Assembly (NCBI GenBank): GCA_964459075.1
Contig: CAYWKE010000001.1
Coordinates: 4,626 to 68,625, forward strand
Source: an uncultured Candidatus Saccharibacteria bacterium
Lineage (GTDB): Bacteria; Patescibacteriota; Minisyncoccia; Phycocordibacterales; UBA12088
Direction of reading: 5' to 3'
Length of the DNA: 64,000 nucleotides
This document shows positions 3,275-56,503 of the stretch, in pieces. Below the pieces are notes generated by a model. That model made no database searches and was not told where the DNA came from. It was given only the letters and a program-made list of their open reading frames with translations. Numbering within the stretch: the stretch's first letter is position 1; each line of letters starts with the position of its first letter. Made by a program: the position numbers and the translations under genes.

Positions 3275-3281
3275 GAACACC

Positions 3282-3287
3282 AGTATA
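3282..3287 (-). promoter_or_regulatory. TATACT -10-like hexamer ('GGGGTATACTGG') 7 nt upstream of ATG 3274
   Basis: The same 'GGGGTATACTGG' string recurs at 11238-11249, about 90 nt upstream of ppsA. Confidence 0.35.
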
Positions 3288-3381
3288 CCCCGGTGTGCCT
3301 CCTGGTCTAGTGTTCGAACACCCCAACGATGAGGAACGCGCCACCCCACAGCATATCCCAGCGTGCTATACTCCACTCACT

Positions 3382-4200
3382 ATGCACGATCGTCGGCCAC
3401 TCCTTATCGTCGTCGCGCTGGTGGGGCTGCTGGTTACCTTCCTGGTGCTGCGACGACTCATCCTCGGTCCGCCTGCCGAGATGCTCGTGGGGCTCACGCT
3501 GCGCGGTGCTGATGCGGTGGCATGGGAAGAGGTCACCCTCGTTATCGATGACGTATGGCTCTCCCAACACGATGGTCGGTGGGTGCGTCTCTCCCGACAC
3601 CCCACTACAGTCACCGCGGGCGAGGTGGCAGAGAACCGGTTTCTACCCATCAGCGAGTCGTGGCGTGGTGCAGGTCGATACGACCGCATCCGCCTTCATG
3701 TTGCTGAGGCCTACGCACGAGAAGGTGGCGGACGCAAAGAGGTACGTCTGCTCTCTGACGAGATCGCACTCTCGCTTCCGATCGAACTCGTACGCGGTGA
3801 GACCTCCTCGGTCACACTAGCGCTGTCCCTCGCTGCATCACTCCGCACCGTCCCCGGAGGTGAGGTAGCCCTCTTGCCGCAGATCAGCGTCGAGAGCAGG
3901 CGCGGCATATCCTACACAAAGAGCGAGAGCGGGCTGCTCGACCTCTCGGGCGGTTCCCTCCTGTTCTCCGGCGTGTTCGGCGTGACTGAGTCGGCTGGTA
4001 TGCGACTGAACTACCGCCTCCCCGATGAGCGCGTGCTGTCGTACGAGAGCAACATACTGTCTGTTATTCCCGAACCACGTACCCGTATCGAGCCCTCTTC
4101 CCTGCGCCCGCGAGCAACCTCGACCCCGCCTGAGGTATCGAGGCCGCCTGAGTCGATCGCACCCACGAGCAGTGCTACTACCACGGCGACCTCTAGCTAG
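3382..4200 (+). CDS. hypothetical signal-anchored protein with Ser/Thr/Pro-rich C-terminus
   Basis: ORF 3295..4200, one of only two supported plus-strand genes. It fills a gap between minus-strand genes. The start is placed at 'MHDRRPLLIVVALVGLLVTFLVLRRLILG' (TM helix), and the C-terminus reads 'RATSTPPEVSRPPESIAPTSSATTTATSS'. No family recognised. Confidence 0.45.
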   Translation: MHDRRPLLIVVALVGLLVTFLVLRRLILGPPAEMLVGLTLRGADAVAWEEVTLVIDDVWLSQHDGRWVRLSRHPTTVTAGEVAENRFLPISESWRGAGRYDRIRLHVAEAYAREGGGRKEVRLLSDEIALSLPIELVRGETSSVTLALSLAASLRTVPGGEVALLPQISVESRRGISYTKSESGLLDLSGGSLLFSGVFGVTESAGMRLNYRLPDERVLSYESNILSVIPEPRTRIEPSSLRPRATSTPPEVSRPPESIAPTSSATTTATSS

Positions 4201-5170
4201 CCACCTCAGCGAGACACTCGTTGTACGCGTGCGCCTCATCATTGTACTCCTCAACGTGTGCACGCTGGCGCGCCAGGAGCTCATTGTAGTTTGCGACGAG
4301 GGTGTTGTACTCCTCGACCTTTGCAATATACGCTTCTCCTGAGGGCTGTGCTGCCTCAAGATCCTCCCGACGCGTGGCGAGCTCTGCTTGCTGTACTTCC
4401 AGAAGAGCGTCCTGTTCCTCAATATCCTCTTTGAGCCCTTGATCGGGTGCGGGACAGACAGAGCGAGGTAACCCAAAGCTCTGTACGGCAACCCAGTTGA
4501 CCTCCCCTTGGAAGGTCGCGCGACGCGCGGCGATACCGATCTCACTGTACTTTTCGTGCAGGATATTTGCTCGGTGTCCCGGACTCTCCATCCATGCTTC
4601 CACTACGTGAGCATCGTCTCGGAAGCCACCATAGGCAAGGTTCTCACCCACCAGAATGTACTGGTACCCTGCTGCCGCGGCTAGTTCCTGGATCCCGTCC
4701 CCCGTCGGGGATTCGTGCTGGAAGTAGTCTCGCGCGATCATGTCAGCGAGCTTGCGCTCTGCCATCTCGGTGAGCTGCGGGTCGACCGAAAACGCGGACA
4801 TCCCGCGTGTGGTTCGCTCGAGGTTCGTCTCACTGAGTATACCTTGGGGCGAAAGTGCAGCCGCACTCTCTGCGTACTCCTCTTGCTGAGGCAGGATCTC
4901 AGAGACGACCGGCACGTCGCGAACACGCTCGACCACGCGCGTGAGGGGACCAGGTGTAGTCGCCGGGGCAGGTACCGACCCCTGCTGCTCCTGAGCTGGC
5001 TCCGCTTCTTCAAAGGTAACAGCGTCCCACAGTCGGACAGCCGGAGCACGTTCTTCTTGTGGCGGCGCGAGCGCGACAGCCCCCTCAGCCGTTGGGGCAG
5101 TCGCCGACTGCGGCAGAGCACCCGAGGAGAACAGGAACGCGAACCCTAACAGGTAGAAGAACACGTGCAT
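4193..5170 (-). CDS. secreted CAP/SCP (PR-1-like) domain protein with coiled-coil C-terminal region
   Basis: Signal peptide 'MHVFFYLLGFAFLFSSGALPQSATA'. CAP-domain motifs are present: 'DYFQHESPTGDGIQELAAAAGYQYILVGENLAYGGFRDDAHVVEAWMESPGHRANILHEKYSEIGIAA'. The C-terminal ~100 aa are helical and Glu/Ala-rich. ATG at 5168-5170 with a TATACT hexamer 8 nt upstream. Confidence 0.75.
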   Translation of the reverse strand: MHVFFYLLGFAFLFSSGALPQSATAPTAEGAVALAPPQEERAPAVRLWDAVTFEEAEPAQEQQGSVPAPATTPGPLTRVVERVRDVPVVSEILPQQEEYAESAAALSPQGILSETNLERTTRGMSAFSVDPQLTEMAERKLADMIARDYFQHESPTGDGIQELAAAAGYQYILVGENLAYGGFRDDAHVVEAWMESPGHRANILHEKYSEIGIAARRATFQGEVNWVAVQSFGLPRSVCPAPDQGLKEDIEEQDALLEVQQAELATRREDLEAAQPSGEAYIAKVEEYNTLVANYNELLARQRAHVEEYNDEAHAYNECLAEVAS

Positions 5171-5178
5171 ACGTCTCT

Positions 5179-5184
5179 AGTATA
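5179..5184 (-). promoter_or_regulatory. TATACT -10-like hexamer (within 'TGGTATACTAG') 8 nt upstream of ATG of CAP-domain gene
   Basis: Minus-strand reading 'TGGTATACTAGAGACGT ATG'. It belongs to a recurrent motif family (see findings). Confidence 0.4.
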
Positions 5185-5211
5185 CCAGAGTCATCTGAGA
5201 TGTGGCGGACG

Positions 5212-5727
5212 TCAGATGATCGAGTCGATGAGCCATCCCACGCTGTAGGCGATCGTGGAAGCTATACCACCCACGAGGAGCATTTCAAGGCCTGAGGTGA
5301 AGAACGAGCGTCGGGTGACCCAGGAACGAGCACCTCCTACCAGAAAGAACGCGAGAAAGGTTGCAGCAATGGAGGCAAGGTAGGGCTCCGGACACCACGT
5401 GGCAGGCAGCATGAACGGGATGAGCGGGATGACACCGATGACGACGAACGCAACGAAGGTGGTCAAGCCGCTATTGAGCGGTGCGTCGTCGGTGGTATCG
5501 CCCCCTGTCACCCGGTCCACGTCGCGCTCTGAGGAGACCGCGAGGTAGCTCGACGAACCCATGGAGAAGCCATCAGCAAAGAGGTTTGCGAACCCGAGAA
5601 TGAGGAAGACCGATACCTCAAGAGAAGCACCCGCAGCGCTCGCTACGATCGCGAATGTGGTGATGAGACCGTCGTTCGCTCCGTAAATGAGATCGGGTAG
5701 GTAGGCAGTGACGAATCGCTTGATCAT
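5212..5727 (-). CDS. VIT1/CCC1-family (vacuolar iron transporter-like) membrane protein
   Basis: 171 aa containing the 'YGANDGLITTFAIVASAAGASL' motif typical of the VIT family, and multiple TM helices. Confidence 0.7.
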   Translation of the reverse strand: MIKRFVTAYLPDLIYGANDGLITTFAIVASAAGASLEVSVFLILGFANLFADGFSMGSSSYLAVSSERDVDRVTGGDTTDDAPLNSGLTTFVAFVVIGVIPLIPFMLPATWCPEPYLASIAATFLAFFLVGGARSWVTRRSFFTSGLEMLLVGGIASTIAYSVGWLIDSII

Positions 5728-6470
5728 GGATCTTCAGGAAGTGCTTCGGGTTCAGGCTGTGGAGAGGGCTCTATCAGCACGTACCCACGTGGGCCGTAGT
5801 CAGGTCGCGGTACCTCTTCTTGGGTGAACCACGCGTCCGGCACTTCGATATCGGCAGCGTACACGTCGCCCACTCGTTCACGTGCTTCGCCGCGGGTAAG
5901 CCCACTTTTGGGCAGTGCTATTGCTAAGATCGCACTTGCTCGTATCGAAGGCCCGACCACGCCCTCGTTCGCATCTATACCTGAAGGAAGATCGAGAGAG
6001 AGAACAGGTCGGCCGCTGTCATTGACCAGACCAATGAGCCGCGCTACTTCACCCCGCACCGCGCCCGCAACCCCATAGCCAAGGAGCGCATCAACAACGA
6101 GATCCGTGCCTCGCAGGAGGTCACGCAGCTCTGCATCGCTCGCCTCTTCTGAGAGACCGACCATGACCGTATCAGGGAGCTGCTCGAACTTGACCTTTGC
6201 GACCGGTTTGAGGAAGAGCTCTGCGCGGGAGAGTACGATGCGCACGTCGTGCCCCTCGTGCGCGAGGATGCGCGCCGCCACCAACCCTGCACCTCCGGTG
6301 TTCCCAGAGCCAATGAGGAGGAGAACGCGGTTGGTCTGTGGGAACTGGTCGTGCACGAGCGCTGCGGTCGCGCGGCCCAGCCGCTCGTGCATGCGCGCGA
6401 GCGGCACTTTGTACTGGTGCACCATGCGCTCATCAAGATCCTGCATGGCAAGCTTAGAAAGAGTGTACAT
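5724..6470 (-). CDS. NAD(P)H-hydrate epimerase (YjeF N-terminal domain)
   Basis: Contains 'VLLLIGSGNTGGAGLVAARILAHEGHDVRIVL...' matching the YjeF_N fold. The ORF-track start (6476) is a GTG, and the ATG at 6468-6470 ('MYTLSKL') is preferred. The TGA stop overlaps the downstream start by 4 nt. Confidence 0.75.
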   Translation of the reverse strand: MYTLSKLAMQDLDERMVHQYKVPLARMHERLGRATAALVHDQFPQTNRVLLLIGSGNTGGAGLVAARILAHEGHDVRIVLSRAELFLKPVAKVKFEQLPDTVMVGLSEEASDAELRDLLRGTDLVVDALLGYGVAGAVRGEVARLIGLVNDSGRPVLSLDLPSGIDANEGVVGPSIRASAILAIALPKSGLTRGEARERVGDVYAADIEVPDAWFTQEEVPRPDYGPRGYVLIEPSPQPEPEALPEDP

Positions 6471-6481
6471 GCTCACACACT

Positions 6482-6487
6482 AGTATA
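6482..6487 (-). promoter_or_regulatory. TATACT -10-like hexamer ('CCGTATACTAGTG') 11 nt upstream of ATG 6470
   Basis: Minus-strand reading 'CCGTATACTAGTGTGTGAGC ATG'. The identical core 'CCGTATACTAG' occurs at 20601-20611. Confidence 0.4.
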
Positions 6488-6544
6488 CGGCTCTGCAGCG
6501 CACGCTGTACAGCGCTTTGTCACCACCACAGTTCAGTTCAAACG

Positions 6545-7726
6545 TTACGAGCGCACCGGCTGTCGCTCTTCAACGATCTCAAGAAGACGATTATACTTGG
6601 CAATGCGTTCTCCGCGCGCAGGTGCGCCCAACTTGAATGCGTCAGCGGCGACCGCAACCGCAAGGTCGGCAATGAACGGATCGTTGGTTTCCCCACTGCG
6701 GTGTGAGACCGCGACGAACCACTTGTACTCACGTGCACGCGCGATCGCATGCAGCGTGTCGGTCACGGTTCCGATCTGGTTGGGTTTGATGATGAGACCC
6801 GTGAGCGCACCGGCCTCTTGGGCTGTGACCATGCGGTGCACGTTCGTCGTGGTGACATCGTCACCAATGACCCGGGTCGTCTCCGGAAGCGCGCTCGTGA
6901 GCGCAGCGTGGTTCGCAAGATCGTCTTCAGTGAACGGATCCTCGAGGTAGCACAGTGGGAACCGCTCAGCAAGACCGCGGTAGGTCTCAACCGAGAGGAG
7001 TGAGGTGTCAGCTACCTCATTCGCTGCAGCGTCCATGCCGTAGCCCATGAACGTGGGCTCAAGCTGCAGTCGGTCGCGCACCTCGTCAAAGAGCGTGAAG
7101 GGCTCGGCGGGGTCCTGGCAGGCGGGTGTGTAGCCGCCTTCGTCACCGAGTGAGGTCGCGTGTGAGCCGAAGCGTTCAACCAGGAGTGTGCCTAACTCGT
7201 GATAGAATCGCGCGGTCATGTGAATGCCGTACTCAGGATGCGCAACCTGCGGTACGATCATGTACTCTTGGAAGGGCAAGCCGGAACCCGCGTGGACACC
7301 ACCGTTGATGAGGTTCGCGAGGAGTTTGGGGTAGCCCGGCGTGGTCCCCGCGAGCTGAGCAAGGTAGCGCCACACCGGCATTCCCTCGCGCGCTGCGAAC
7401 GCCTTCACAACTGCGATCGATACGCCGAGCGTTGTGTTGCCACCCAGCTTCGAGAGGTCGTCCGTGCCGTCAAGCTCGTGCAGGATAGTATCGACACGCT
7501 GGGGATTGTCGAGTACGACCCCCAGGAGCGCATCCTCAATGGTACTCTCGATGTACTGAATGGCCTCGGTGACCGATACACTCTTCACCTCGTGGGAACC
7601 AGCACTCTTCCCTTCAGGCACGGCAGCGCAACCAACCGAACCATCAGAGAGATGGACCGAGACCTCGAGGGTCCACGTGCCGCGACTCGTGAGAATGGGG
7701 CGAGCTGTGAGCTTTGCAATGGTCAT
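6545..7726 (-). CDS. eno: enolase (phosphopyruvate hydratase), divergent
   Basis: 393 aa. Enolase signature elements are present ('SHRSGETNDPFIADLAVAV', 'GAPARGERIAKYNRLLEIEE', N-terminal 'LTARPILTSRGTWTLEVSV'). ATG at 7724-7726. Confidence 0.85.
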   Translation of the reverse strand: MTIAKLTARPILTSRGTWTLEVSVHLSDGSVGCAAVPEGKSAGSHEVKSVSVTEAIQYIESTIEDALLGVVLDNPQRVDTILHELDGTDDLSKLGGNTTLGVSIAVVKAFAAREGMPVWRYLAQLAGTTPGYPKLLANLINGGVHAGSGLPFQEYMIVPQVAHPEYGIHMTARFYHELGTLLVERFGSHATSLGDEGGYTPACQDPAEPFTLFDEVRDRLQLEPTFMGYGMDAAANEVADTSLLSVETYRGLAERFPLCYLEDPFTEDDLANHAALTSALPETTRVIGDDVTTTNVHRMVTAQEAGALTGLIIKPNQIGTVTDTLHAIARAREYKWFVAVSHRSGETNDPFIADLAVAVAADAFKLGAPARGERIAKYNRLLEIVEERQPVRS

Positions 7727-8736
7727 GCACCTACCGCATTCTGTGGTTCACCTGCAAGCACGCTCGCAATGTTGTCGATCGTGGTTTGCATAATGCGCTT
7801 GAGGGCCTCTTCAGTATTGAATGCGCTATGTGGGGTAACAATGACCGACGGGTGGTCGATGAGGATGTGGTTCGCCAATAGGGTTCGCATGTGTTCGGTC
7901 TCGTGCAGGTGGTGCGCCAGGAACGACAACTCATCTTTGACGATACCCTCTTCCTCAAACACGTCGAGTCCTGCGCCTTTCAGCCGCCCTTGGGAGAGTC
8001 CCTCCACGAGCGCCTCCGTCTGGATGATGGGGCCGCGGGACGTGTTGATGATGACCGCACCCTCCTTGACCTGGGTGATGTTCTCGCAGTTGAGCATGTG
8101 GTGGGTCGCCTCCATGTAGGGCACGTGGAAGGTGATGACGTCCGAACTCGAGATCAGTTCCTCGAACGAGGCGTAGCGCATCCCCTGTTCATTCGCAAAC
8201 TCCTCATTTGGGTACGGATCGTAGCCGATGACCTCCATGCTAAAGCCCCTCCCGATCATGACCGCATGCCGCCCGATGTTGCCCGTACCCACGACTCCCA
8301 ACGTGCGGCCCATGAGGTCGAACCCGCGTAACTGGTGAGGGTTGAAACCTCGTCCCTCACGGACCTGCTCGTACCCATCGGTGATACGTTTGGAAAGCGA
8401 GAGGAGAAGTGCGAAGGCGTGCTCGGCGACCGTGTTCGATCCGTACGTCGGCACGTTCATGACAGTGATGGTACGCTCCTTTGCCGCCTCTAAGTCGATG
8501 TGGTCAAAGCCGGTCGAGCGGGTGGTGACGAATTGCAGTCGAGGGAACAGCTCCATCGTCTTTCGGTCGACGACCGAGTCGATAAAGACCGAGATACCTT
8601 CGACCGAGCGATCATCAGGGAGTGCGTCGTGCAGCAGCGGCCCCTTGATGAAGGTCAGTTCATTCCCATCTGCGATAGGCGAGGAGCGTACGAAGTCCTC
8701 TTCCCAGTCCTCAGCAATGAAGAAGGCAATGTGCAT
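7723..8736 (-). CDS. D-isomer-specific 2-hydroxyacid dehydrogenase (D-lactate/hydroxypyruvate reductase-like)
   Basis: 337 aa. NAD-binding 'GRTLGVVGTGNIGRHAVMIGRGFSMEVIGYDPY' and catalytic region '...VIVTPHSAFNTEEA'. The 4-nt overlap with eno suggests an operon. Confidence 0.8.
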   Translation of the reverse strand: MHIAFFIAEDWEEDFVRSSPIADGNELTFIKGPLLHDALPDDRSVEGISVFIDSVVDRKTMELFPRLQFVTTRSTGFDHIDLEAAKERTITVMNVPTYGSNTVAEHAFALLLSLSKRITDGYEQVREGRGFNPHQLRGFDLMGRTLGVVGTGNIGRHAVMIGRGFSMEVIGYDPYPNEEFANEQGMRYASFEELISSSDVITFHVPYMEATHHMLNCENITQVKEGAVIINTSRGPIIQTEALVEGLSQGRLKGAGLDVFEEEGIVKDELSFLAHHLHETEHMRTLLANHILIDHPSVIVTPHSAFNTEEALKRIMQTTIDNIASVLAGEPQNAVGA

Positions 8737-8738
8737 GG

Positions 8739-11147: not shown

Positions 11148-11196
11148 GGTACGTAAAGAACTTAGGTTCCCCAATAAACACTACTACTAAAAGAAC

Positions 11197-12489
11197 TCAC
11201 TCCTTCAGCAACACGTACAGATCTGATACGTTGCTACCAGTATACCCCGTAACCACTCCTTGATGCACCCTGTGGAAGAATGTGAAGGAGTCACAGCGGG
11301 TAAGAAAGTCGTGCGGATCGAGTCCTGCTTCACGTGCTGCCTCCTGCGTCGTGGTATCAGCGATCGCACCTGCGTTATCGGACTTGTCGCGTCCGTCGGA
11401 GGCCACGGTCAATACGAGCTCACCCGCAGTAAGCGCTGGGAGCGCAGCAAGGGCGAGGTGTTGATTGCGTCCACCCTCTCCCTCGCCCGTGATCTCGACC
11501 GTCGTCTCGCCACCGTAGAGCCACACCTCGCCAGGGCCCATACGCTTGAGTTCATGCGCGAACCGCTGCGCGACCGCGTTCGCATCTCCCTCAAGGGTCG
11601 CCGAGACCACTCGCGGTGACAGACCACGTTCACGCGCAACGCGCTCCATAGCCGACAGGGCGGCCTGGTTCGTCAGTGCTAGGGTGTTGCGTGTGGTCGC
11701 AAAGCATGCCGGGTCTTTCGGGGTCTCGAACAGCACAGCGGGGTCGAACCCCTCAGGCGCACACGCGAACGTGGAGAGAACCGAACGCGCATCGGCGACT
11801 GTTGATGTATCAAGAATGGTCGGTCCTGAGGAGATCACGGAAAGGTCATCCCCAGGCACGTCCGAGAAGATGAGTGCCTCCAAGCGCGCAGGGTGGGCTG
11901 CCGCAGCGAGGTGTCCGCCGCGAGCGAGCGAGAGGTGCTTGCGTACGGTGTTCAGCTTGGCGATGGTTACGCCGCACGAAAAGAGTGCGCGGATCAGCTC
12001 TTCCTCAGCCACACAGGTGTGACTCTGCGGTTGGAACAGCAAGGTAGAGCCGCCACCTGAGATGATGAGAATGATCAGGTCGTCCTCGGTCGCGCTCTCA
12101 AGGAGGGTCAGAAGCTCCCTCGTGTGGAGCACGTTGGCATCTGAGGGGTAGGGGTGGGTACCCTCACACGAGCGGATGCGCTTCAGGATACCGCTGTCGC
12201 ACCGCACATCAACGACCACCCCATCGTCAATGCGCTCGCCCAAGATCTCTTCGAGCGCGTAGGCAGCATCGAGCGCACACTTCCCCACACCCCCGACGAG
12301 CAATCGTCGAAATGAGGTTGCTGGATAGCGCCTCCCAGCGATCACGAGCGTGCCGTCCGGCTCACGCGCGACCTGCGCGCGCATGACCGCTCGCGTATCG
12401 ATGGCGCTGAGCGCGGCTTCCACCAAAGCGAGCGCGTGTGCGCGCAGTGGCGTACATGCCAATTCCTCCGCATTCTGCACGTACCCCAT
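11197..12489 (-). CDS. glycerate 2-kinase (MOFRL family / DUF4147)
   Basis: 430 aa. 'GVGKCALDAAYALEEILGERIDDGVVV', 'IIISGGGSTLLF' and 'LSGGTDGIDG'-like regions are characteristic of the hydroxypyruvate reductase-like glycerate kinase family. Confidence 0.75.
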   Translation of the reverse strand: MGYVQNAEELACTPLRAHALALVEAALSAIDTRAVMRAQVAREPDGTLVIAGRRYPATSFRRLLVGGVGKCALDAAYALEEILGERIDDGVVVDVRCDSGILKRIRSCEGTHPYPSDANVLHTRELLTLLESATEDDLIILIISGGGSTLLFQPQSHTCVAEEELIRALFSCGVTIAKLNTVRKHLSLARGGHLAAAAHPARLEALIFSDVPGDDLSVISSGPTILDTSTVADARSVLSTFACAPEGFDPAVLFETPKDPACFATTRNTLALTNQAALSAMERVARERGLSPRVVSATLEGDANAVAQRFAHELKRMGPGEVWLYGGETTVEITGEGEGGRNQHLALAALPALTAGELVLTVASDGRDKSDNAGAIADTTTQEAAREAGLDPHDFLTRCDSFTFFHRVHQGVVTGYTGSNVSDLYVLLKE

Positions 12490-12576
12490 GGTACCGGTAT
12501 GGTACCCCGTGCTGCCTGGTCAATTCAATCGACCTATACACAGGCCCGCACACCAGCGACTGTTTCCTGGGGTAAA

Positions 12577-13257
12577 ATGGAGGTGATGCGCCACGTGATA
12601 TTTCGGCACCGCTACACGATACTGATCGGTGCACCCATTGTGGTGATGCTCGCCACATCGCTCGGGTTCACCACGCAGTTCGATACGCTCACCCTCGAAC
12701 CTTCCCAGCGCTTCATCGCCGTAGGCGCAACCACCTCGATCGCGGTCTCGATCACGACGACCGAACCGGTCAACGTCATTGGGGGCGAGATCACCCTCTC
12801 TGAGGAACTGCGCGTCATCTCGATCGACACCACCGAGACCATCGTCGACCTATGGAGCGATGAACCAGCAGCGAGAGCCCCACGGGTCATCACCTTCAGC
12901 GGCGGGATCATACCGACGGAGGCAGGAGGATTTGAGGGCTCAGGCACGCTCTTTCAGTTCACTGTTGCGGCCGCCAAAGCAGGTTCGGGTCGCATCGAGT
13001 TCACACAGGCTGAGGTACTCGCCCACGATGGGCGAGGCACCAACGTGCTCGACCGACGGGTCCCCTTACGCCTGGTCGTCCATCCCAGCTCACGCCCCTC
13101 CCCCGACCTCGATGCGGATGATCGTGTCTCGCTGCTTGACGTGGGAATGGTCTCACGTCGAATATTCACCTCCTACGATCCACGCTATGATCTCAATACC
13201 GACGGACGTATTTCCTTCAGCGATGTCCTCCTGGTGATGCGCTACCTCGCCAAGTAG
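12577..13257 (+). CDS. small secreted protein with cohesin-like domain and C-terminal dockerin-like segment
   Basis: ORF 12436..13257 trimmed to the ATG at 12577 because the track start overlaps the divergent gene. Signal/TM 'ILIGAPIVVMLATSLGF'. Cohesin-like core '...VNVIGGEITLSEELRVISIDTTETIVDLWSDEPAA...ITFSGGIIP...GSGRIEFTQAEVLAHDG'. The C-terminal 'DLDADDRVSLLDVGMV...YDLNTDGRISFSDVLLVMRYL' resembles a Ca-binding dockerin repeat pair. Confidence 0.5.
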   Translation: MEVMRHVIFRHRYTILIGAPIVVMLATSLGFTTQFDTLTLEPSQRFIAVGATTSIAVSITTTEPVNVIGGEITLSEELRVISIDTTETIVDLWSDEPAARAPRVITFSGGIIPTEAGGFEGSGTLFQFTVAAAKAGSGRIEFTQAEVLAHDGRGTNVLDRRVPLRLVVHPSSRPSPDLDADDRVSLLDVGMVSRRIFTSYDPRYDLNTDGRISFSDVLLVMRYLAK

Positions 13258-13350
13258 TCACGCACGCCGCGCGAAGGTGCGCAGGTGTCATCAGTGATTC
13301 TCAGCGAGTTGGCAGAGAAGCCTCGCGCTCCGCTCCTGCCCTTAGACACA

Positions 13351-16175: not shown

Positions 16176-16206
16176 GCTGAGGGCGTGGGAGCAGTTATCC
16201 AGTCCA

Positions 16207-18539: not shown

Positions 18540-18625
18540 GAAGATATACCGTGCGCCTGACGCACGTAATACTCGCCATTGTACCGCTAAACAAGCCTCT
18601 TGAGAAAACTCTCCTGAGGATAGAC

Positions 18626-18663
18626 CGGGGAAAACGAAAACACAGCTGCGAGTGCAGCTGTGT
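18626..18663 (-). terminator. rho-independent terminator candidate downstream of gene 18685..20571
   Basis: Perfect 10-bp inverted repeat ACACAGCTGC/GCAGCTGTGT (18640-18663) with loop GAGT. On the minus-strand transcript it is followed by 'UUUUCGUUUUCC' (plus 18626-18639). Confidence 0.5.
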
Positions 18664-18684
18664 TCTTGGCTATGGATCTAACGA

Positions 18685-20571: not shown

Positions 20572-20603
20572 GACCCCAACAAAGTTTTTCTAATACATGT
20601 CCT

Positions 20604-20609
20604 AGTATA
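20604..20609 (-). promoter_or_regulatory. TATACT -10-like hexamer ('CCGTATACTAGG') 32 nt upstream of ATG 20571
   Basis: It lies in the 79-nt intergenic region between the permease gene and the 628-aa surface-protein gene. Confidence 0.35.
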
Positions 20610-20650
20610 CGGCGAAACGTGGTACGTGTGCAGGGTCGTTATGTGGAAAA

Positions 20651-21859: not shown

Positions 21860-21865
21860 AGGCGA

Positions 21866-23356: not shown

Positions 23357-23361
23357 ATCGT

Positions 23362-23468
23362 TTTAGTATGAGGGTGAAGTATGAGTATGAGTCGTGGTTT
23401 GTGCTACGCACAACACACGTTCACAAGCGAAGCGTCCCACATACTCATACTGCATACCCATACTCATA
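23362..23468. repeat. imperfect long inverted repeat built from GTATGAG/CTCATAC units between the FN3 gene stop and the ABC ATPase start
   Basis: Left arm 'AGTATGAGGGTGAAGTATGAGTATGAGT' (23367-23394). Right arm 'CATACTCATACTGCATACCCATACTCATA' (23439-23467). A ~40-nt spacer separates them. The right arm abuts the TAA of gene 23469... Confidence 0.45.
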
Positions 23469-24920: not shown

Positions 24921-24938
24921 GAGCGACACTGGTGGGGT

Positions 24939-25280
24939 TCACGGCGAATCGTAGTCAAACACGCGACGCATGTACCACAGCAGGATGAGGAGCACGCCCA
25001 GCAGGATGATACCTATCGTCACCTCGTCGTAGTAGTAGTACGTAGCAGGACGGGTACACGCAAAGTGGTCCGAGAACGTTCCGTCACAGTACCGACCACT
25101 CTTGATCGAGAGCAGTCCACCGACCAGTAGGAGGGACCCTACCATCAGTCGGATGTTCTCCATGAAAATGAGGAGGTCGCGCATCACGCCACGACGCGTC
25201 ATCATGAAGAGGTAGCGAAGGGTGTTCCCCGCGCGTATGCGTCCGTGAGCTGGTTTCCCTGAAGTGTGTTCTGTGGACAT
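24939..25280 (-). CDS. small two-TM membrane protein (hypothetical)
   Basis: ORF 24939..25301. A TATACT -10-like hexamer lies inside the first codons of the track ORF, so the start is placed at the ATG at 25278-25280 ('MSTEHTSGK...'). Hydrophobic helices 'LMVGSLLLVGGLLSI' and 'VTIGIILLGVLLILLWY'. Confidence 0.35.
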   Translation of the reverse strand: MSTEHTSGKPAHGRIRAGNTLRYLFMMTRRGVMRDLLIFMENIRLMVGSLLLVGGLLSIKSGRYCDGTFSDHFACTRPATYYYYDEVTIGIILLGVLLILLWYMRRVFDYDSP

Positions 25281-25328
25281 ACGTTCTCTAGTATACGTCA
25301 TACGAGGATTTGCTGCGCGTGGATTTCC

Positions 25329-26000: not shown

Positions 26001-26001
26001 G

Positions 26002-46299: not shown

Positions 46300-46463
46300 T
46301 GAGTTGTCCACACAGACCGATAGGGTCTTGCGAAACAGACACCCCACAACCCCCGATCTGTACTCTCAGTATCTCACGAAGGGTACCTGCCAACCAGCAA
46401 AAACGTTGCCAAAACTGTGTATTTCTGATTGCTTTTGCGTCCGAGTGCGTACCCGACAACATA

Positions 46464-46491
46464 CACCCCGCACCAGCAAGGGCGCGGGGTG
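46464..46491 (-). terminator. hairpin between the cohesin gene 46511..48007 and the giant ORF (weak terminator or attenuator candidate)
   Basis: 8-bp inverted repeat CACCCCGC/GCGGGGTG with a 12-nt loop. The downstream U-tract on the minus strand is poor ('GUAUGUUGUCGG'). Confidence 0.3.
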
Positions 46492-46510
46492 TATGGTGGC
46501 GTGTGGGTGA

Positions 46511-48007: not shown

Positions 48008-48025
48008 GCTAAAACGTGTCGCGGA

Positions 48026-48502
48026 CTACTCGACCCGAACGACGTTCATCTTGAACGCGTTCTTTGAGTGACCCTTCAGGGGAAGCGTCAGTACGAGAAC
48101 CCCGTCTTTCTCTTTCGCATCTGCTTCTTCGGGTTCGATCTCCTCAGGCAGGATGATCTGGCGGTAGAAGTCGCCCCAGCTGCACTCCTCGAGTGAGAAG
48201 TCGCCATGCGCGTTACCAATGAGATCCTCAGGGCGCACCGACGAACCACTGATCGTGATCACATCGTTCTGTCCTCCGATAGAAACATCGAGGGATGCGA
48301 GGTCAACCCCGGCGATCTGGGCGAACACCACGACCTCGTTGTCGGTCTGGAAGACATCGACCGGCAGCTGCAGCGCGTTGTGCACGGGCACCTCGCTCGG
48401 TGCCGCATTCGGCGCTTTGGGATGTGGTGCGGCCTGCTCTTCGCTCGCCGCATCTCCCTTCACTACCCCTTTCCCTTTAAGCTTCTCCATGAACGTCGCC
48501 AT
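48026..48502 (-). CDS. Hsp20/alpha-crystallin family small heat-shock protein
   Basis: 158 aa. ACD-like core 'LQLPVDVFQTDNEVVVFAQIAGVDLASLDVSIGGQNDVITISGSS...KDGVLVLTLPLK'. ATG at 48500-48502. Confidence 0.8.
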   Translation of the reverse strand: MATFMEKLKGKGVVKGDAASEEQAAPHPKAPNAAPSEVPVHNALQLPVDVFQTDNEVVVFAQIAGVDLASLDVSIGGQNDVITISGSSVRPEDLIGNAHGDFSLEECSWGDFYRQIILPEEIEPEEADAKEKDGVLVLTLPLKGHSKNAFKMNVVRVE

Positions 48503-48659
48503 AGCTGGGTCCCTTGGTTACGCGTTGCTAATGTACTCATCCCCCGATACGGTAGCGTGTTCGCCCCCACGGCGTCTGCACGCTGCATCAGACCTATATA
48601 GTATACCGAACAATCGAGTGCTCTGGTGAGTTCGTTTTGTGGATAAAACGTGTACAACG

Positions 48660-50564
48660 CTATCCGCTCCAGCAGAAGAGCATGATGGAAAAATCGGCGA
48701 GCTCGACGAGGCCTGAGAGATTGATGTCAGCAGCGAGGTCAGTCGTGTTCCAGTTGAAGAGGAGAATTGAGAAGTCGGTGAGATCGACGAGGGTGTCCTG
48801 ATTGATGTCAGCACGCTGACACTGATCCCCAACCGGGGCTTGTCCGACACCAATGGGTACTGGTGCGCTCTTGGCACTCTCAAGACCCTCTGCAGGCAAG
48901 CGCGCTCGCGCGAGCAGGTTGTAGGCACCCAGCGAAAGACCGTCGGTTGCGTACGTGAGCGTGTAGGCGCCCGTTCCCGCCGCGGTCGTCGTTGCGGTCG
49001 ATGCGCCTACGATGCGCCTCCCCTCTTGCTCGACGAACACCTCAAGGAGCGATTCGGCAGGAGCGTACCCCGACACACTGATCACGTCACCCGGATCGAT
49101 CTCGTCTTGATCGACCGATATCGTCGGGGGGATGACCACACCTGCGATCGCGTTCTCTGTGTCAGCGCGTAGCGTGATGGTGGTGTTGTAGGTACCGGAG
49201 CGCACTCCACTCGCGTCTTCTGCGTATACAGCGAAGGTGTACGTGCCGCGCTCAAGGCCTGTGACCTCGGTCGAGAAGGTCCCATCACTGCGCGCGGTGA
49301 GCGAACCCACCGAGTCCCCATCTTGCAGAACCGTGACGCGCGAACTGGGGTACGCCCACCCCGATAACGAGACCGATGCCTGTCTGAGGAATTCTCCACC
49401 GTCATCGCTGCCGCCACTACCGCTTCCACCGCCACCACCTCCCGAAGAGCTCCCTCCCGAGCCGCTCGTACCTGGGCCTGAGCCCGAACCACTAGTACCC
49501 CCGCCGGTTCCCGTGCCCGTGCCAGGACCATCCCCATCTCCGGTTCCACCACCGTCGCCACCCCCCGTACCACCGGTCGTTGAGCTGGTCGTTGAGGAGA
49601 ACGTCGTTGAACCGACCGAGCCGGTGGGCCCAGGCCCGATCGGCACAGCACCAATGGTGAAGCGAATAGGAAACTCGGACGTCTCGTTACCATTGAAGTC
49701 ACGACAGATACCAAAGAACTCGTACGTCGTTGTTGCAGCGACGATGAACGGGGGTGAACGGTGGTTGGGCGTGGTCGAAGCATTGTCCGCGATCATTGTG
49801 TAGGTCATGCTCGCGTAGGCGGTCGAGGATGCCTCATCGTACTTACAGATCGCGACATCGTCGGTCAAGAGTGAGAACTCGACCTCCTCGTTGATACCTG
49901 CGACCAGCTCATCAAGTGCCGGGCGCAGACCAAATACCACCGGCGGCTCATTGTCGATGAACCGCGCACCAGCCGTGACCTGCTCGATGATGTAGATCGC
50001 GGCAAGGGTCGTATCGATGGTCACGTCGCTTGCGTTTCTGGTCGCAACCGTCACCAAGACCGGCCCAGTACCCGGATTCACGAGCTGATCGCGTCCGGTG
50101 CCTCCGAAGGTTGCCGTTGTCCCCAACTCGATGCGCACCGTCTCACCTGCATTGAGGCCGAGCGTGGAGCCGAGGTTGAAGATGAGTCGGGTCGAGGAGC
50201 CGTACGTGAGATCTACCCCAACGGTCGATGTGCCCGGGGTCGAGGTAGCCAACACGCGGTCGGTGTAGTTGAGGAGCGAGGACGTGCCGGTGGTCGCTGT
50301 CGAGAAGTCGATGTCCGTGATATCGAACTCGCTCGGCATGAAGAGCCCGTTGCGAAAATCCACCACCACGTCGCCGCCCGGAGGAACCGCAGCGACCGTC
50401 GTAAACAGGATGCGGTGGTTTGCAGGGGTCTCGGGCGCTGAGGTGGAAATGAGGTCACTGACGAACTGGAGCCGGTCAGCGAGCGCCTGCGGCACCGCCC
50501 CGAAGAGTGTCAGCAACACGCAAAGCGTCACGCACGCCAGAACCAGACCCAGGAATGGTCGCAT
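48660..50564 (-). CDS. secreted protein: N-terminal beta domains + long Gly/Ser/Thr linker + Ig-like domains + C-terminal dockerin (paralog of 16207..17385 in its C-terminal half)
   Basis: ORF 48660..50693 trimmed to the ATG at 50562-50564 ('MRPFLGLVLACVTLCVLLTLFGAVPQALA', signal peptide). Linker 'TGGTGGGDGGGTGDGDGPGTGTGTGGGTSGSGSGPGTSGSGGSSSGGGGGGSGSGG'. C-terminus 'DINQDTLVDLTDFSILLFNWNTTDLAADINLSGLVELADFSIMLFCWSG'. Confidence 0.65.
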   Translation of the reverse strand: MRPFLGLVLACVTLCVLLTLFGAVPQALADRLQFVSDLISTSAPETPANHRILFTTVAAVPPGGDVVVDFRNGLFMPSEFDITDIDFSTATTGTSSLLNYTDRVLATSTPGTSTVGVDLTYGSSTRLIFNLGSTLGLNAGETVRIELGTTATFGGTGRDQLVNPGTGPVLVTVATRNASDVTIDTTLAAIYIIEQVTAGARFIDNEPPVVFGLRPALDELVAGINEEVEFSLLTDDVAICKYDEASSTAYASMTYTMIADNASTTPNHRSPPFIVAATTTYEFFGICRDFNGNETSEFPIRFTIGAVPIGPGPTGSVGSTTFSSTTSSTTGGTGGGDGGGTGDGDGPGTGTGTGGGTSGSGSGPGTSGSGGSSSGGGGGGSGSGGSDDGGEFLRQASVSLSGWAYPSSRVTVLQDGDSVGSLTARSDGTFSTEVTGLERGTYTFAVYAEDASGVRSGTYNTTITLRADTENAIAGVVIPPTISVDQDEIDPGDVISVSGYAPAESLLEVFVEQEGRRIVGASTATTTAAGTGAYTLTYATDGLSLGAYNLLARARLPAEGLESAKSAPVPIGVGQAPVGDQCQRADINQDTLVDLTDFSILLFNWNTTDLAADINLSGLVELADFSIMLFCWSG

Positions 50565-50571
50565 GTTCCCG

Positions 50572-51042
50572 TTATACCACGACCTTCCGCTCGCTCGCAG
50601 GGGAGCGCTGTGCAATACGTACGCGCATGTCCCGCCGGGTGCGACGCGCATCGAGGCGGAAGTTGAGCAGAATGAGCGAGAGCAGTGCCACACTCACCAG
50701 CGTGGTATAGAGGAGCGCGAAGGTGTTCCCTGCGTTGCCCGCCCGCGCCGGGAGTGGTGCAGGAGCATCGCGGGTCAGGGTCTGGAGCTCTGCCTCAGCT
50801 GCTGCGACCGCGCGCTCGCGCTCAGCAAGCTCACCCTCGCGGCGGGTGAGCTCAGCCGTGATCTGGTTGAGCTCGGTAGGAGCGACCGCGGCAGAGGTAC
50901 CGATCCCCGCTTGCTGCAGAGAGAGAGTCGAACGGGTAAGGGTCGTCCACGAGAAGGTGAGCGCGAGAGCGCACACGAGAGCGCCGACGAGAGCTAGCTC
51001 CCATCCACCCCGATTGTGCTGTACTCCGTGGTGGCGACGCAT
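50572..51042 (-). CDS. small two-TM protein with central coiled coil (hypothetical)
   Basis: ORF 50572..51288 trimmed to the ATG at 51040-51042 ('MRRHHGVQHNRGGWELALVGALVCALALTFSW...'), because the track start overlaps the upstream gene. Second TM 'FALLYTTLVSVALLSLILLNF'. Confidence 0.4.
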   Translation of the reverse strand: MRRHHGVQHNRGGWELALVGALVCALALTFSWTTLTRSTLSLQQAGIGTSAAVAPTELNQITAELTRREGELAERERAVAAAEAELQTLTRDAPAPLPARAGNAGNTFALLYTTLVSVALLSLILLNFRLDARRTRRDMRVRIAQRSPASERKVVV

Positions 51043-51056
51043 AGTATCACTATACC

Positions 51057-52160
51057 TCAGGAGAAGAAGAGGAAGATCCCCACGAGGACGAGAATGGTCA
51101 GTGACAGGAAGACGAGCATGACCGATGAGAGTCGTGAGGCGAAGGAGACCGGCGCAGGACCCTTCGCGCGGTAGCCGGCTTGCTTGAGCTGTGCACGCAC
51201 GTAGAGACGCGCACCACCCCACACGATGAGGAAGAACAGGAGCAGTCCGCCAAACGCGATACCGAGCTCCTTGGTCGGAATGACCCAAAAGCTGGTCTCA
51301 CGGGTGATGCTCTGCTTGCGGTCGACCCCGTAGGAGACGGTGATGCGTGCATCATAGCGTCCCAGGAAGAAGCCCTCCTCAGGTTCCCACGTTGTTTGGT
51401 AGCGACGCTCCCCGCCGGGCGAGGCCCCACCGCGCCCGCCTGGATTGACCTCGAGCTTGGCGACCTCATTGCCGAGCATGTCCTCAATGGTGAGGATGCC
51501 GACAGGCCGCTGGAGGACCGAGCCGGTGTTCTCCACGACCGTGGTGAAGATCGCAGGTGGGTACTGGTAGAGTGAGCGGTCAGTGGAGAACTGGGTGATC
51601 TTGAGATCCTCAACGATGTCACCATTGATCTGAATGTTCATGAGGGAGGCAACCTGGAACCCTATCCCAGCCCCCGAGCTCTGCACCCGATCGGCTTGAC
51701 GGTCGAGCACAATAGCTCCGAAGTGCCCTCCAGGGGGTGAATTTGCTGGCGGCGAGATCACGTACCCGATACTGTCGCTTTGCCCGGGTGCGAGGGTAAC
51801 CTGGGAGCGCGTGAGCGTCACCCACGAGGCGAGCGTGAGTCCCGTCTCATCATCGCCCGTGGCGAAGCGGGGCTTGCCATCGATGTCGGTCGACTCGACG
51901 TTGCGCGAGAAGAGGTAGTAGGTCTGGGTCTCATCACTGACGTTCGTGACCGTCACCTCGCCCGACAGCGTCTCCCCCGGATCGATACGTTCCTCGATCA
52001 GGGTCGGTTGCATCTGTGCACCGATCTGCTGGGCTTCTACTCGCTCAACACACGCCACGCCGAACGTGCACAGCGCAAGCAGGGCGATAGCGCCAACGCG
52101 CCAAGCCCACGCATGGGCGACGGTGCGAAACGCAAAGGGGGATTCGATCATACCTTCCAT
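51057..52160 (-). CDS. DUF916/DUF3324-like cell-surface protein with C-terminal TM anchor (paralog family B)
   Basis: The ORF-track start (52214) is a TTG. ATGs at 52158-52160 ('MEGMIESPF') and 52149-52151 are preferred. Signal 'AWAWRVGAIALLALCTFGVACVERVEA'. Ectodomain '...VTVTNVSDETQTYYLFSRNVESTDIDGKPRFATGDD...LAPGQSDSIGYVISPPANSPPGGHFGAIVL'. C-terminal TM 'FGGLLLFFLIVWGGARLYV' plus a second hydrophobic segment. Confidence 0.55.
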   Translation of the reverse strand: MEGMIESPFAFRTVAHAWAWRVGAIALLALCTFGVACVERVEAQQIGAQMQPTLIEERIDPGETLSGEVTVTNVSDETQTYYLFSRNVESTDIDGKPRFATGDDETGLTLASWVTLTRSQVTLAPGQSDSIGYVISPPANSPPGGHFGAIVLDRQADRVQSSGAGIGFQVASLMNIQINGDIVEDLKITQFSTDRSLYQYPPAIFTTVVENTGSVLQRPVGILTIEDMLGNEVAKLEVNPGGRGGASPGGERRYQTTWEPEEGFFLGRYDARITVSYGVDRKQSITRETSFWVIPTKELGIAFGGLLLFFLIVWGGARLYVRAQLKQAGYRAKGPAPVSFASRLSSVMLVFLSLTILVLVGIFLFFS

Positions 52161-52276
52161 ATAGTTAGGGACAATATGCTCGCCAGTGTACCCCAGGTCA
52201 ACAACTCGTACCAAGTGGCGCTATACACAAAGACCCGCACGTGTGCGGGTCTGTGTGTCATAAGCGCCAAGCGTCT

Positions 52277-53470
52277 CTAGAAGACCGGAGTTGCAACGTA
52301 CGTAAGTGTTGCAGTGTAGTCGTCTGCTGCTTCCTGCAGCGTTCCGATCTCGATCTTGTAGCCAACGCGTGTGAAGCTCTCCCCTGAGACAGGTGCCGAC
52401 GTGTAGCTGACCGCTTCACTGTTATAGAACACCTCTACCGGGTTGTTCACGAAGTTACCGACGTAACTCGAGGTTCCAACACCGCCAAAGTCAAGCGCGG
52501 TGCCCACATCGTCGTCATCCGAGGTCAAACCCCAGTGACCATACGTGTTGGGTACACCAAAGTTGTTGAGGGGATTCGCCCAGGGCGTACCTACCGGGAC
52601 CTCAGAGCCGTTGTTGAACGGATCGATGGTCGCTGTGTTACCTGCCGTCAGCGTTTGATCCGCCTCGACCGTCACCGTGAAGCCGTTGAGGGCATTGGTG
52701 TCGATCCTGAGCTCCTGCGCGAGGAACCTCGGCTGATTCGTTTGCAAGATGCCGAAGGCAACCGAAGTTGCTGTTGTGGATGCGTACGTCGCGAGAGGCT
52801 CATCGTTGACCGTTGTGCCTGAGGCAACACCAGCGATGGTGAAGGTGAGAATGGTCTCGACCTCTGCGGTCACAGTAACGTCGTCGATGACCGCAACGCG
52901 GGTATCGCCCGAGTCTGCCATGGTCCCAGCGACCTCGATGACGTACGAGTCTGCGACGTTGGGATTGGCGATATAATTGCCGTTCCCTCCGACCACGATC
53001 TGTACGACCGTGCCGGTCGCGATCTCGTCAGGTGGCGTATCTGAGGGACACACCGTGAGTTCAACGGTGTCTGTGACGTTATCAACATCGCTCACGTACA
53101 TCTGGTTCGTTACGCCGTTGTTACACGCAAGGTCGTTCGCGATCTGCGTGATACCTCCTCCCGGTACAGATGCTACCGTCACATCTGAGGTCGAAAGAGA
53201 CCCGAAGTCGAAGTCGAGGTCTCCGTCGACGGGATCGAAGGTGATCACTATCGTCTCACCTGCGTTGATCGCGCTCGAAAGCTCGAACTGGATCGTGTGC
53301 GTTGCCGTCGCGCCCAGATCGGAATCTGAGATCGTGTCGGTCACGTCAATGAGCGCTGCGGCGTCTGCCGTGTGGATCCAGTTGGGCAGGCCAAGCGACC
53401 AAGCGAGTAATGCCGCAATGACCGCAAGGACCAATGCCTTGGAGCGGAACTGCGAAAGATCTGTCGTCAT
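52277..53470 (-). CDS. secreted surface protein with WxL-like C-terminal domain
   Basis: 397 aa. Signal 'ALVLAVIAALLAWSLGLPNWIHTADAAA'. C-terminal ~110 aa: 'TYGHWGLTSDDDD...DYTATLTYVATPVF'. Gene 56504.. has the same arrangement (a W-G-L/Y motif about 70 aa before a '(D/Q)Y(T/S)xx(L/I)xY(V/I)xxP(V/T)F' end). Confidence 0.5.
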   Translation of the reverse strand: MTTDLSQFRSKALVLAVIAALLAWSLGLPNWIHTADAAALIDVTDTISDSDLGATATHTIQFELSSAINAGETIVITFDPVDGDLDFDFGSLSTSDVTVASVPGGGITQIANDLACNNGVTNQMYVSDVDNVTDTVELTVCPSDTPPDEIATGTVVQIVVGGNGNYIANPNVADSYVIEVAGTMADSGDTRVAVIDDVTVTAEVETILTFTIAGVASGTTVNDEPLATYASTTATSVAFGILQTNQPRFLAQELRIDTNALNGFTVTVEADQTLTAGNTATIDPFNNGSEVPVGTPWANPLNNFGVPNTYGHWGLTSDDDDVGTALDFGGVGTSSYVGNFVNNPVEVFYNSEAVSYTSAPVSGESFTRVGYKIEIGTLQEAADDYTATLTYVATPVF

Positions 53471-53506
53471 GCGTAAAATGCTAGCTAGCGTTTCACTTGT
53501 AATAGC

Positions 53507-53526
53507 GAGTTCGCAGCGGCGAACTC
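53507..53526 (-). promoter_or_regulatory. hairpin in the putative 5' leader of gene 52277..53470
   Basis: 8-bp inverted repeat GAGTTCGC/GCGAACTC with loop AGCG, 37 nt upstream of the ATG at 53470. A TATACT element lies further upstream at 53652-53657. Confidence 0.3.
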
Positions 53527-53711
53527 ATGACGAGCGTGATCGACCTCCCAGCGAGGTACGCACCACCGATTACTGAGCAAAGCCCGTTGGGATATCGAGG
53601 TTTGCTTGATGGGGCGCGGGTTCAATCGCTGAAGTATCAAGCTCACAAATTAGTATACGTCCACATGACGCTGTGTGAGAACACGCGCTTGTGGATAACG
53701 CAACTCTGTGG

Positions 53712-56433: not shown

Positions 56434-56503
56434 TGTACGGGTGATACAGGTGGCGCGAAAGGGATGGTCGTGCATAACGGTAAGAACAAAAAGGAACAAA
56501 AAG

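Follow-up and report, generated by a model that had tools for sequence, protein, structure and literature searches.

Minimal mycobacterial promoters, consisting of a -10 element and a guanine at -14 or -13, were reportedly the subject of work by Zhu and colleagues in 2017 (J Bacteriol 199:e00385-17), and Cortes and colleagues are said to have presented the leaderless transcriptome of M. tuberculosis in 2013 (both cited in PMC12641261). From E. coli and Thermus it is known that a G two bases downstream of the -10 hexamer contacts sigma region 1.2, while T-12, A-11 and T-7 are the signature of group-1 sigma factors. Gene finders make use of -10 signals located near start codons. Here we describe a recurrent element, GTATACT(A/G)G, in a stretch of 64,000 nucleotides (nt) from an uncultured Candidatus Saccharibacteria bacterium (contig CAYWKE010000001.1; hereafter the window, to which all coordinates refer unless another locus is named). 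Sigma-70-type holoenzymes are known to contact promoters without a -35 element at the positions that its G (-13) and its purine and G (-6/-5) occupy. Terrabacteria promoters in general have a G-rich stretch immediately before the -10 element and a discriminator rich in A and G, and transcription starts approximately 7 bp past the -10 element (PMC12641261).

Promoters and modes of translation start are almost undescribed in the Candidate Phyla Radiation (CPR)/Patescibacteria, and our literature search retrieved no paper linking leaderless transcription with this group. The kind of biology reported below, promoters of the sigma-A type lacking a -35 element and leaderless genes, is known; it is found here in a lineage for which the searchable literature offers no such description.

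Most probably, GTATACT(A/G)G is the strongest form of the general housekeeping sigma-70-type promoter of this organism, a Parcubacteria/Paceibacteria-like member of the Patescibacteria. The promoter block would comprise a G at -16, a G at -13, the hexamer T-A-Y-A-M-T (mostly TATACT), a purine at -6 and a G at -5, and judging from other bacteria the primary sigma factor would read it via its regions 3.0, 2.4/2.3 and 1.2. Transcription would begin approximately 6-8 nt past the hexamer. A hexamer positioned 6-11 nt before an ATG would then give an mRNA that is leaderless or has a leader no longer than about 5 nt and lacking a Shine-Dalgarno sequence, while the same box at ppsA, Hsp20 and surface-protein genes would give transcripts with leaders of 24-181 nt.

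Sequences analyzed

The window has a GC content of about 60%, and almost all of its genes are located on the minus strand. Its proteins resemble those of uncultured Patescibacteria: the YjeF_N gene matches a metagenome-assembled genome (MAG) named 'Patescibacteria group bacterium' (L001) with 58% identity, and the nearest relatives of the enolase are found in Patescibacteria/Paceibacteria MAGs, the closest with 75% identity. The sequence is also present in Logan assemblies of SRR7048223 and on an NCBI contig. The window was extended on its upstream side by 6.8 kb (L004) and on its downstream side by 3.5 kb (L003); the resulting contig of 74,279 nt, in gene-sense orientation, is the extended contig, 3.7% of which is intergenic according to the curated gene map. 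Syntenic loci of relatives with 45-66% GC were collected via enolase and Hsp20 homologs (L005, L006, L007, L008/L009, L010 and L131-L135); among them, L005 has a GC content of 66% and L007 of 45%.

Number, strand and location of the element

The eight hexamers on which the original prediction was based are all present at their minus-strand coordinates, and their measured distances to the named ATGs are 7, 8, 11, 9, 91, 32, 97 and 181 nt; a ninth copy of GTATACT, at 4836-4842, had been missed. These nine copies in the window compare to 1.65 expected from 100 dinucleotide shuffles, none of which reached nine. The longer form GTATACTRG occurs six times as compared to 0.15 expected, which means that the trailing (A/G)G, proposed as part of the motif, is found in six of the nine copies and is missing from the other three.

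The element is strand-specific relative to the downstream genes: the nine copies of the window all occupy the minus strand, in gene-sense orientation, and boxes on the plus strand precede both plus-strand genes (ATG 3382 and ATG 12586). In the extended contig, eight of ten GTATACT copies are intergenic and sense and none is antisense. The density of the motif in the intergenic fraction is about 100-fold above that in coding sequence. A motif-blind word count in the gaps of the extended contig returned TATACT as the top 6-mer (10 observed, 0.64 expected) and GTATACT as the top 7-mer (8 observed, 0.12 expected).

Could the recurrence lack a function and simply follow from composition, from codon usage or from a dispersed repeat? 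Two copies, at 4836 and 11239, are indeed located in coding sequence. The first (4836-4842, minus strand) is inside the CAP-domain gene 4193-5170, is missing from the ortholog of this gene in L010 (7865-8884) and is probably a chance occurrence. The explanation holds at most for this single site, and we consider it hardly credible for the element as a whole, since the shuffles do not reach the observed count, the difference in density between gaps and genes is large, and sites are kept in relatives despite diverged flanks. A dispersed repeat or miniature inverted-repeat transposable element was rejected, the sites having no similarity to each other outside the positions -16 to -5.

The second coding copy differs from its initial description. 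The site at 11239 does precede the ppsA ATG by 91 nt, but it is not intergenic: it falls within the final codons of the glycerate-kinase gene (11197-12489).

A probable -10 element without a -35 partner

A box with a score of at least 12 is found in 17 of the 24 promoter-bearing gap directions and one with a score of at least 11 in 21 of them, the chance expectation for such a scored box being about 8% per 100 nt. When 19 promoters were aligned at their hexamers, G-13, A-11 and T-7 were present in all of them, T-12 in 18 and A-9 in 17; further, a purine at -6 was found in 18 of 19, and G-5 and G-16 each in 13 of 19, G-16 lying outside the score used for selection. The information in this alignment is confined to the positions -13 to -5, plus G-16. 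No -35 signal was detected at -36 to -30 of the 19 promoters, and a scan for canonical -35/-10 pairs gave 6 sites with 5.6 expected, that is, no excess of a TTGACA-like partner at 16-18 nt.

The earlier assignment of the element to the -10 class is thus borne out: it is oriented towards genes, enriched between them and located upstream of them, and the TAnnnT pattern of sigma-70 -10 elements is nearly invariant, all nine exact copies reading TATACT. A classical extended -10 motif with TG at -15/-14 is not general, as most sites carry G-13 with G or C at -14.

The original prediction had gone further and seen in the extended conservation a specific sigma-factor or regulator site. A dedicated alternative sigma factor or a transcription factor with its own regulon would account for the conservation beyond the hexamer, with G-13 in 19 of 19 promoters and the downstream purine-G, and for the strong excess of the exact 9-mer. 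However, the box or near variants of it (GTACAAT, GTAAAAT, GTATAGT, GTACACT) occupy most promoter-bearing gaps (the 17 to 21 of 24 directions mentioned above), and the downstream genes share no function; they encode a small membrane protein, CAP-domain and YjeF_N proteins, ppsA, Hsp20, surface proteins, a dockerin protein and a glycogen debranching enzyme. Moreover, the conserved T-12, A-11 and T-7 correspond to the group-1 sigma signature, a conserved -35 partner such as alternative sigma factors need is missing, and orthologous sites interchange with TATAAT, TACAAT and TAGAAT (see below). An alternative sigma or extracytoplasmic function (ECF) promoter was rejected on the grounds of the absent -35 element and the unrelated genes. 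We therefore regard a specific site as improbable and the claim as not upheld.

The core of the element does contain the perfect 6-bp palindrome GTATAC, as had been noted, and nine of the ten occurrences of GTATAC in the window are GTATACT sites, while only two of the ten GTATACT copies of the extended contig are coding. This is what would be expected from the operator of a dimeric regulator, or from a restriction-modification or methylation target tolerated only between genes. The functional-looking copies nevertheless share one orientation relative to the genes and are always followed by T, and the flanks are asymmetric, with G or C but never A on the 5' side. In orthologs the palindrome is lost (GTATAAT, GTACAAT, GTAGAAT) and TAnnnT is kept, and neither an operator nor a methylation site would have any use for a constant distance of 6-11 nt to an ATG. 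The palindrome is thus incidental given the constant orientation and the asymmetric flanks; a palindromic operator, for which symmetry, independence of orientation and a palindrome in the orthologs were looked for, was discarded, and this explanation as a whole has very little to recommend it.

Orthologous promoters in related genomes

Orthologs with the same N-termini keep a box at a matching distance from the ATG with a different hexamer, and TATACT, TATAAT, TACAAT and TAGAAT replace each other at the same position. The glycerate-kinase gene is preceded by GGGGTACCAT with TACCAT 9 nt before the ATG in the window and by GCGTACAATGG with TACAAT at 8 nt in L005. At the dockerin gene, GGGGTAAAATGG with TAAAAT at 7 nt corresponds to GGTAGAATGG with TAGAAT at 6 nt in L005, the two proteins sharing the N-terminus MRHVIFRH. 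The small membrane protein has GGGGTATACTGG 7 nt before its ATG in the window and GGTATACT 4 and 7 nt before ATGATG in L010. For the CAP-domain gene, the box located 8 nt before ATG 5170 corresponds to TGCTATACTGG, 57 nt upstream of the ATG in L010, and the TACACT of the 52160 gene to GTATGATAG with TATGAT in both L007 and L008. In L001, GTATACT is found 7 nt before an ATG.

The Hsp20 box is kept as GTATA(C/A)T or xTATACT in eight related genomes of 45-66% GC, the hexamer being TATACT in seven of them and TATAAT in L007; spacer and -35 region of these Hsp20 orthologs are not conserved. Similarly, the surface-protein box at 53652 reads GTATAAT in L007, ATATACT in L008 and GTATACT in L134. Conservation of the position and of TAnnnT with drift of the inner bases is the behaviour of a -10 element and unlike that of a palindromic operator, as judged from these alignments.

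At ppsA, no invariant run in an alignment of three genomes is longer than the box sequence CGGGGTATACTGG. In the codons GGG, TAT and ACT its invariance extends to the third, synonymous position, also in L005 with its high GC content, whereas the next glycine codon varies freely. This conservation at synonymous positions fits a ppsA promoter that probably lies within the 3'-terminal part of the glycerate-kinase gene. In the same part (11197-11300), the codons of a conserved T-G-Y-T-G spell GGGGTATACTGG in three genomes.

Several observations weigh against a general sigma-70-type promoter. The conserved G abuts the hexamer at -13, and a TGn motif is found only at 3364-3372, at the CAP-domain gene of L010 and at Hsp20 of L131 and L132. 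The exact 7-mer GTATACT makes up about one third of all boxes and is thus more uniform than the usual degenerate -10 element; a preferred high-affinity promoter class may stand behind this uniformity. To these can be added the conservation beyond the hexamer and the two of nine copies in coding sequence described above, the absence of a sigma factor gene from the window, and the fact that promoter activity as well as leaderlessness are read from the positions of the boxes.

Probable leaderless starts and use of Shine-Dalgarno sequences

At 14 of 46 gene starts in the contig a strong box ends 6-11 nt before the start codon, as compared to a background of 1.6-2.8% (p ~2e-11); this statistic is inflated and partly circular, a further point on the opposing side, since the starts 6470, 56424 and 12586 were picked with the motif in view, while 3274, 5170, 3382, 51042 and 50564 are the public pipeline's own calls. 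The distance between hexamer and start codon has its mode at 6-9 nt, all start codons of this type are ATG, and several of the products have a signal peptide or transmembrane helix at their very N-terminus. Leaderless mRNAs had been proposed for several genes. The geometry applies to four of the genes listed and to about ten more, and leaderlessness itself is deduced from it. Based on the boxes at the 14 starts, about half of the transcription units are likely to give transcripts that have no leader or almost none.

On the minus strand, leaderless-type boxes are found at 3280..3288 (GTATACTGG, hexamer 3282-3287), 7 nt before ATG 3274, the start of a membrane protein of 115 aa; at 5177..5185 (GTATACTAG), 8 nt before ATG 5170 of a CAP-domain secreted protein; and at 25288..25296 (GTATACTAG), 9 nt before ATG 25280 of a 113-aa hypothetical protein. 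The GTATACTAG box at 6480..6488 (minus strand), 11 nt before ATG 6470 of the YjeF_N protein, implies a leader of about 4-5 nt. The N-terminal extension starting at 6470 is common to the L001 homolog, in which the box itself is not kept. On the plus strand, TGCTATACT at 3364..3372 is a canonical TGn extended -10 element, 9 nt before ATG 3382 of the divergent gene 3382-4200, and a GTAAAAT box (GGGGTAAAATGG) at 12572..12578 (hexamer 12573-12578) lies 7 nt before ATG 12586 of the dockerin protein. Three further minus-strand boxes are GTACCAT (GGGGTACCAT) at 12499..12505, 9 nt before ATG 12489 of the glycerate kinase, GTATAGT at 51049..51055, 6 nt before ATG 51042, and GTACAAT at 56432..56438, 7 nt before ATG 56424, from which the product begins with the signal peptide MRFLATL...

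Seven of the 14 genes with leaderless geometry have no Shine-Dalgarno-like match and the others have only short matches at chance level. Shine-Dalgarno-like motifs are, however, not enriched at any gene class of the extended contig, leadered and internal genes included: 18 of 32 non-leaderless genes lack such a motif, as do 55% of random positions. Use of Shine-Dalgarno sequences as a contrast class failed for this reason. A strong GGAGG-type site was found at two genes only, for example GGGGAGGTGAT before the gene at position 4745 of the extended contig. Judged by these counts, the organism appears to use Shine-Dalgarno pairing little, which fits the detection of an anti-Shine-Dalgarno motif in only 48% of Parcubacteria (PMC9297842).

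The public gene calls at 6446 and 56475 differ from the starts at 6470 and 56424 implied by the boxes. The latter are supported by the -10 boxes together with N-terminal conservation or a signal peptide, and standard pipelines seem to mis-call leaderless starts. The consensus G-TAYAMT-RG and the many leaderless-type starts would improve the calling of gene starts in such MAGs.

Boxes at a greater distance from the start codon

The remaining boxes with a listed strand are all on the minus strand and stand further upstream of their genes. The GTATACTGG box at 11237..11245 forms the glycerate-kinase codons G-Y-T-G, 91 nt before the ppsA ATG 11147. A GTACAAT box at 18578..18584 is found 38 nt before ATG 18539, a GTATACTAG box at 20602..20610 (hexamer 20604-20609) 32 nt before ATG 20571 of a 628-aa secreted protein, and a GTACACT box (GGGGTACACTGG) at 52185..52191 24 nt before ATG 52160. 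GTATACT at 48600..48606, the putative Hsp20 promoter, is 97 nt away from ATG 48502, and GTATACT at 53652..53658 (hexamer 53652-53657) is 181 nt away from ATG 53470 of a 397-aa surface protein (gene 52277-53470). A GTACATT variant of the box family occurs at 48536, with no strand listed. Beyond the window, the extended contig contains GCTATAAT, GTAAGAT and one more GTATACT box.

An RNA thermometer was considered for the Hsp20 leader and rejected, as its fold is no better than that of shuffles (z = 0.13). In a comparison by eye, none of the consensus sequences for CRP/FNR, CIRCE, HAIR or sigma-32 fitted the Hsp20 upstream region. Approximately 15-30 nt before the Hsp20 ATG there is a conserved block with ACGCGT, CATTAGCAACGCGTAAC in the window (48503-48540) and CACGCGTTCTTTAG in distant relatives (L006 and L131-L133 examined), which might serve as a further operator or as an RNA element. 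The predicted leader of 181 nt before the surface-protein gene (53471-53651) has a stabler fold than shuffles (z = -2.1) and no Rfam match; a scan of the whole window retrieved no Rfam family at its threshold.

Three side observations concern the gaps and the neighbouring genes. In the gap upstream of the ATP-binding cassette (ABC) transporter (23357-23468), which is missing in L010, a 25-nt inverted repeat with 84% complementary arms (23365-23389 and 23440-23464) is composed of CATACT/AGTATG units, and its proximal arm contains three CATACT hexamers resembling a -10 element; 8 nt separate the last of them from ATG 23356. The sequence TGTGTATA is present in four intergenic gaps of the extended contig (12535-12542, 52222-52229 and the regions around 2750 and 4470 of the extended contig), and its distance from the -10 boxes differs between them; with two copies in the window and an inconsistent position relative to the boxes, it was dismissed as a second motif. 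Two giant genes, encoding about 6,765 and 2,409 amino acids, are located at 26002-46299 and 56504-63733 and are accompanied by several cohesin, dockerin and fn3 surface proteins, and the block comprising Hsp20, cohesin and the giant DUF2341 protein is syntenic in every relative examined.

A DnaA-box-like element upstream of some promoters

DnaA is a known transcription factor, and the 9-mer TTATCCACA equals the consensus DnaA box (PMC8203912). In the window, TTATCCACA is found on the minus strand at 48638..48646, 32 nt before the Hsp20 -10 hexamer, and at 53690..53698, 32 nt before the hexamer 53652-53657. The DnaA-box-like TTTTCCACA is located at 20642..20650, also on the minus strand and 32 nt before the hexamer 20604-20609. 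The match to the DnaA box is perfect at the first two sites and in all orthologs, the third one being the variant just named. Exact TTWTCCACA occurs four times in the window, with 0.37 copies expected, and three of the four are positioned exactly 32 nt before a TATACT hexamer. The fourth copy, at 950-958, is coding and was treated as chance. With one mismatch allowed, TTWTCCACA is not enriched in the window (12 observed, 10.9 expected), and TCTTCCACA near 11239, which has a different spacing and is inside conserved coding sequence, was left out of the count.

Upstream of Hsp20 the 9-mer is invariant in eight related genomes, 31-32 or 41-43 nt from the hexamer. In five genomes TTATCCACA and a T-rich GTATAxT are the sole invariant non-coding blocks there, with 30 unalignable nucleotides between them; in three more distant ones a perfect TTATCCACA is located 41-43 nt from the Hsp20 hexamer, one helical turn further. 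At the surface-protein gene, where it is invariant in four genomes, the 9-mer is kept 31-33 nt from the hexamer in L007 (5033), L008 (4094) and L134 (4648), and L134 carries both spacing classes. Its further positions are 908 in L006, 9872 in L007, 9852 in L008, 1079 in L010, 35 in L131, 2883 in L132, 2889 in L133 and 9889 in L134.

A metagenome scan for TTATCCACA-N22-40-GTATACT gave at least 120 loci with a noisy gap histogram and is not a census. Among the matches listed, 21 of 49 intergenic-like ones have a spacing of 28-31 nt (p = 5e-4), while coding-like ones show no peak; other boxes in the listed loci include three of seven strong -10 matches at 29-31 nt (p = 0.006). Several listed matches have a TTGACA-like -35 element between TTATCCACA and the -10 hexamer.

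A 9-mer present at a subset of promoters would probably bind an accessory protein. A reading that complements the general promoter is that the promoters at 20604, 48600 and 53652 form a class of their own, in which a box-binding protein, DnaA or another factor, bound on one face of the helix and centred near -49 or -59, would recruit or restrain RNA polymerase in place of the -35 contact. The recurrent 32-nt spacing, the invariance of the 9-mer at two genes next to unalignable spacers, the two spacing classes one helical turn apart within a single genome, the 28-31 nt peak of the listed metagenome matches and the identity to the consensus box of a transcription factor argue in its favour. On the other side, DnaA binding is a proposal from the sequence match, the window contains no dnaA, the independent promoter families involved number only two or three, the metagenome scan is noisy, and the 9-mer might function as an UP-like element or be recognised by an unrelated factor. 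In addition, we know of no DnaA-regulated promoter described so far with a fixed spacing. In our estimation the chances of such a separate class are evenly balanced.

The stronger proposal is put forward as a rather doubtful one: in this family of Patescibacteria, a subset of strong promoters lacking a -35 element, those of Hsp20 and of abundant surface proteins, would require a protein at a single TTATCCACA held on one face of the helix and centred near -49 or -59, and this protein could be DnaA. The listed metagenome matches suggest, within this proposal, that the two-part architecture is used well beyond the family. If DnaA does act at TTATCCACA, the replication cycle and the expression of chaperone and envelope genes would be coupled in these ultra-small cells, which are poor in regulators. 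For organisms that have very few transcription factors, the 9-mer also offers a concrete, testable entry point into the study of regulation.

A one-mismatch variant of the DnaA box in reverse orientation, TTGTCCACA at 46304-46312 (plus strand), was noticed 5 nt upstream of ATG 46299 of a giant gene. The variant boxes ATATCCACA and CTATCCACA are found upstream of the orthologous giant genes in L134 and L135.

Comparison with known systems

On the basis of this comparison, the mycobacterial minimal promoter is the closest described class. Both combine TAnnnT with an immediately upstream G, lack a usable -35 element and belong to GC-rich Terrabacteria genomes. In contrast to the mycobacterial promoters, essentially all sites described here carry G-13, TATACT is preferred, G-16 and a purine-G at -6/-5 are frequent, the host is a member of the Patescibacteria, and the promoters are predicted from sequence. 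With the classical extended -10 element of E. coli and Firmicutes (TGnTATAAT) the element shares contacts just upstream of the hexamer that offset the missing -35 element, but most sites lack the TG and have their G moved to -13.

The leaderless promoters of Actinobacteria and Deinococcus-Thermus are similar in that the -10 element precedes the ATG by about 6-11 nt, a Shine-Dalgarno sequence is absent and many first genes of operons are affected. Transcription starts were mapped in those organisms, whereas here the geometry of box and start codon is the basis, and Shine-Dalgarno sequences appear weak at leadered genes too.

Last, the upstream 9-mer resembles DnaA boxes serving as transcription-factor sites, with which it shares the identical consensus TTATCCACA and the arrangement as a single oriented promoter box (reviewed in PMC8203912). 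A connection between DnaA and heat shock is known in E. coli, where DnaA represses rpoH, and here the box is found at Hsp20. It differs from the known DnaA sites in its fixed, helix-phased distance of 31-33 or 41-43 nt from a -10 element without a -35 partner, DnaA binding being predicted here from the match to the consensus.

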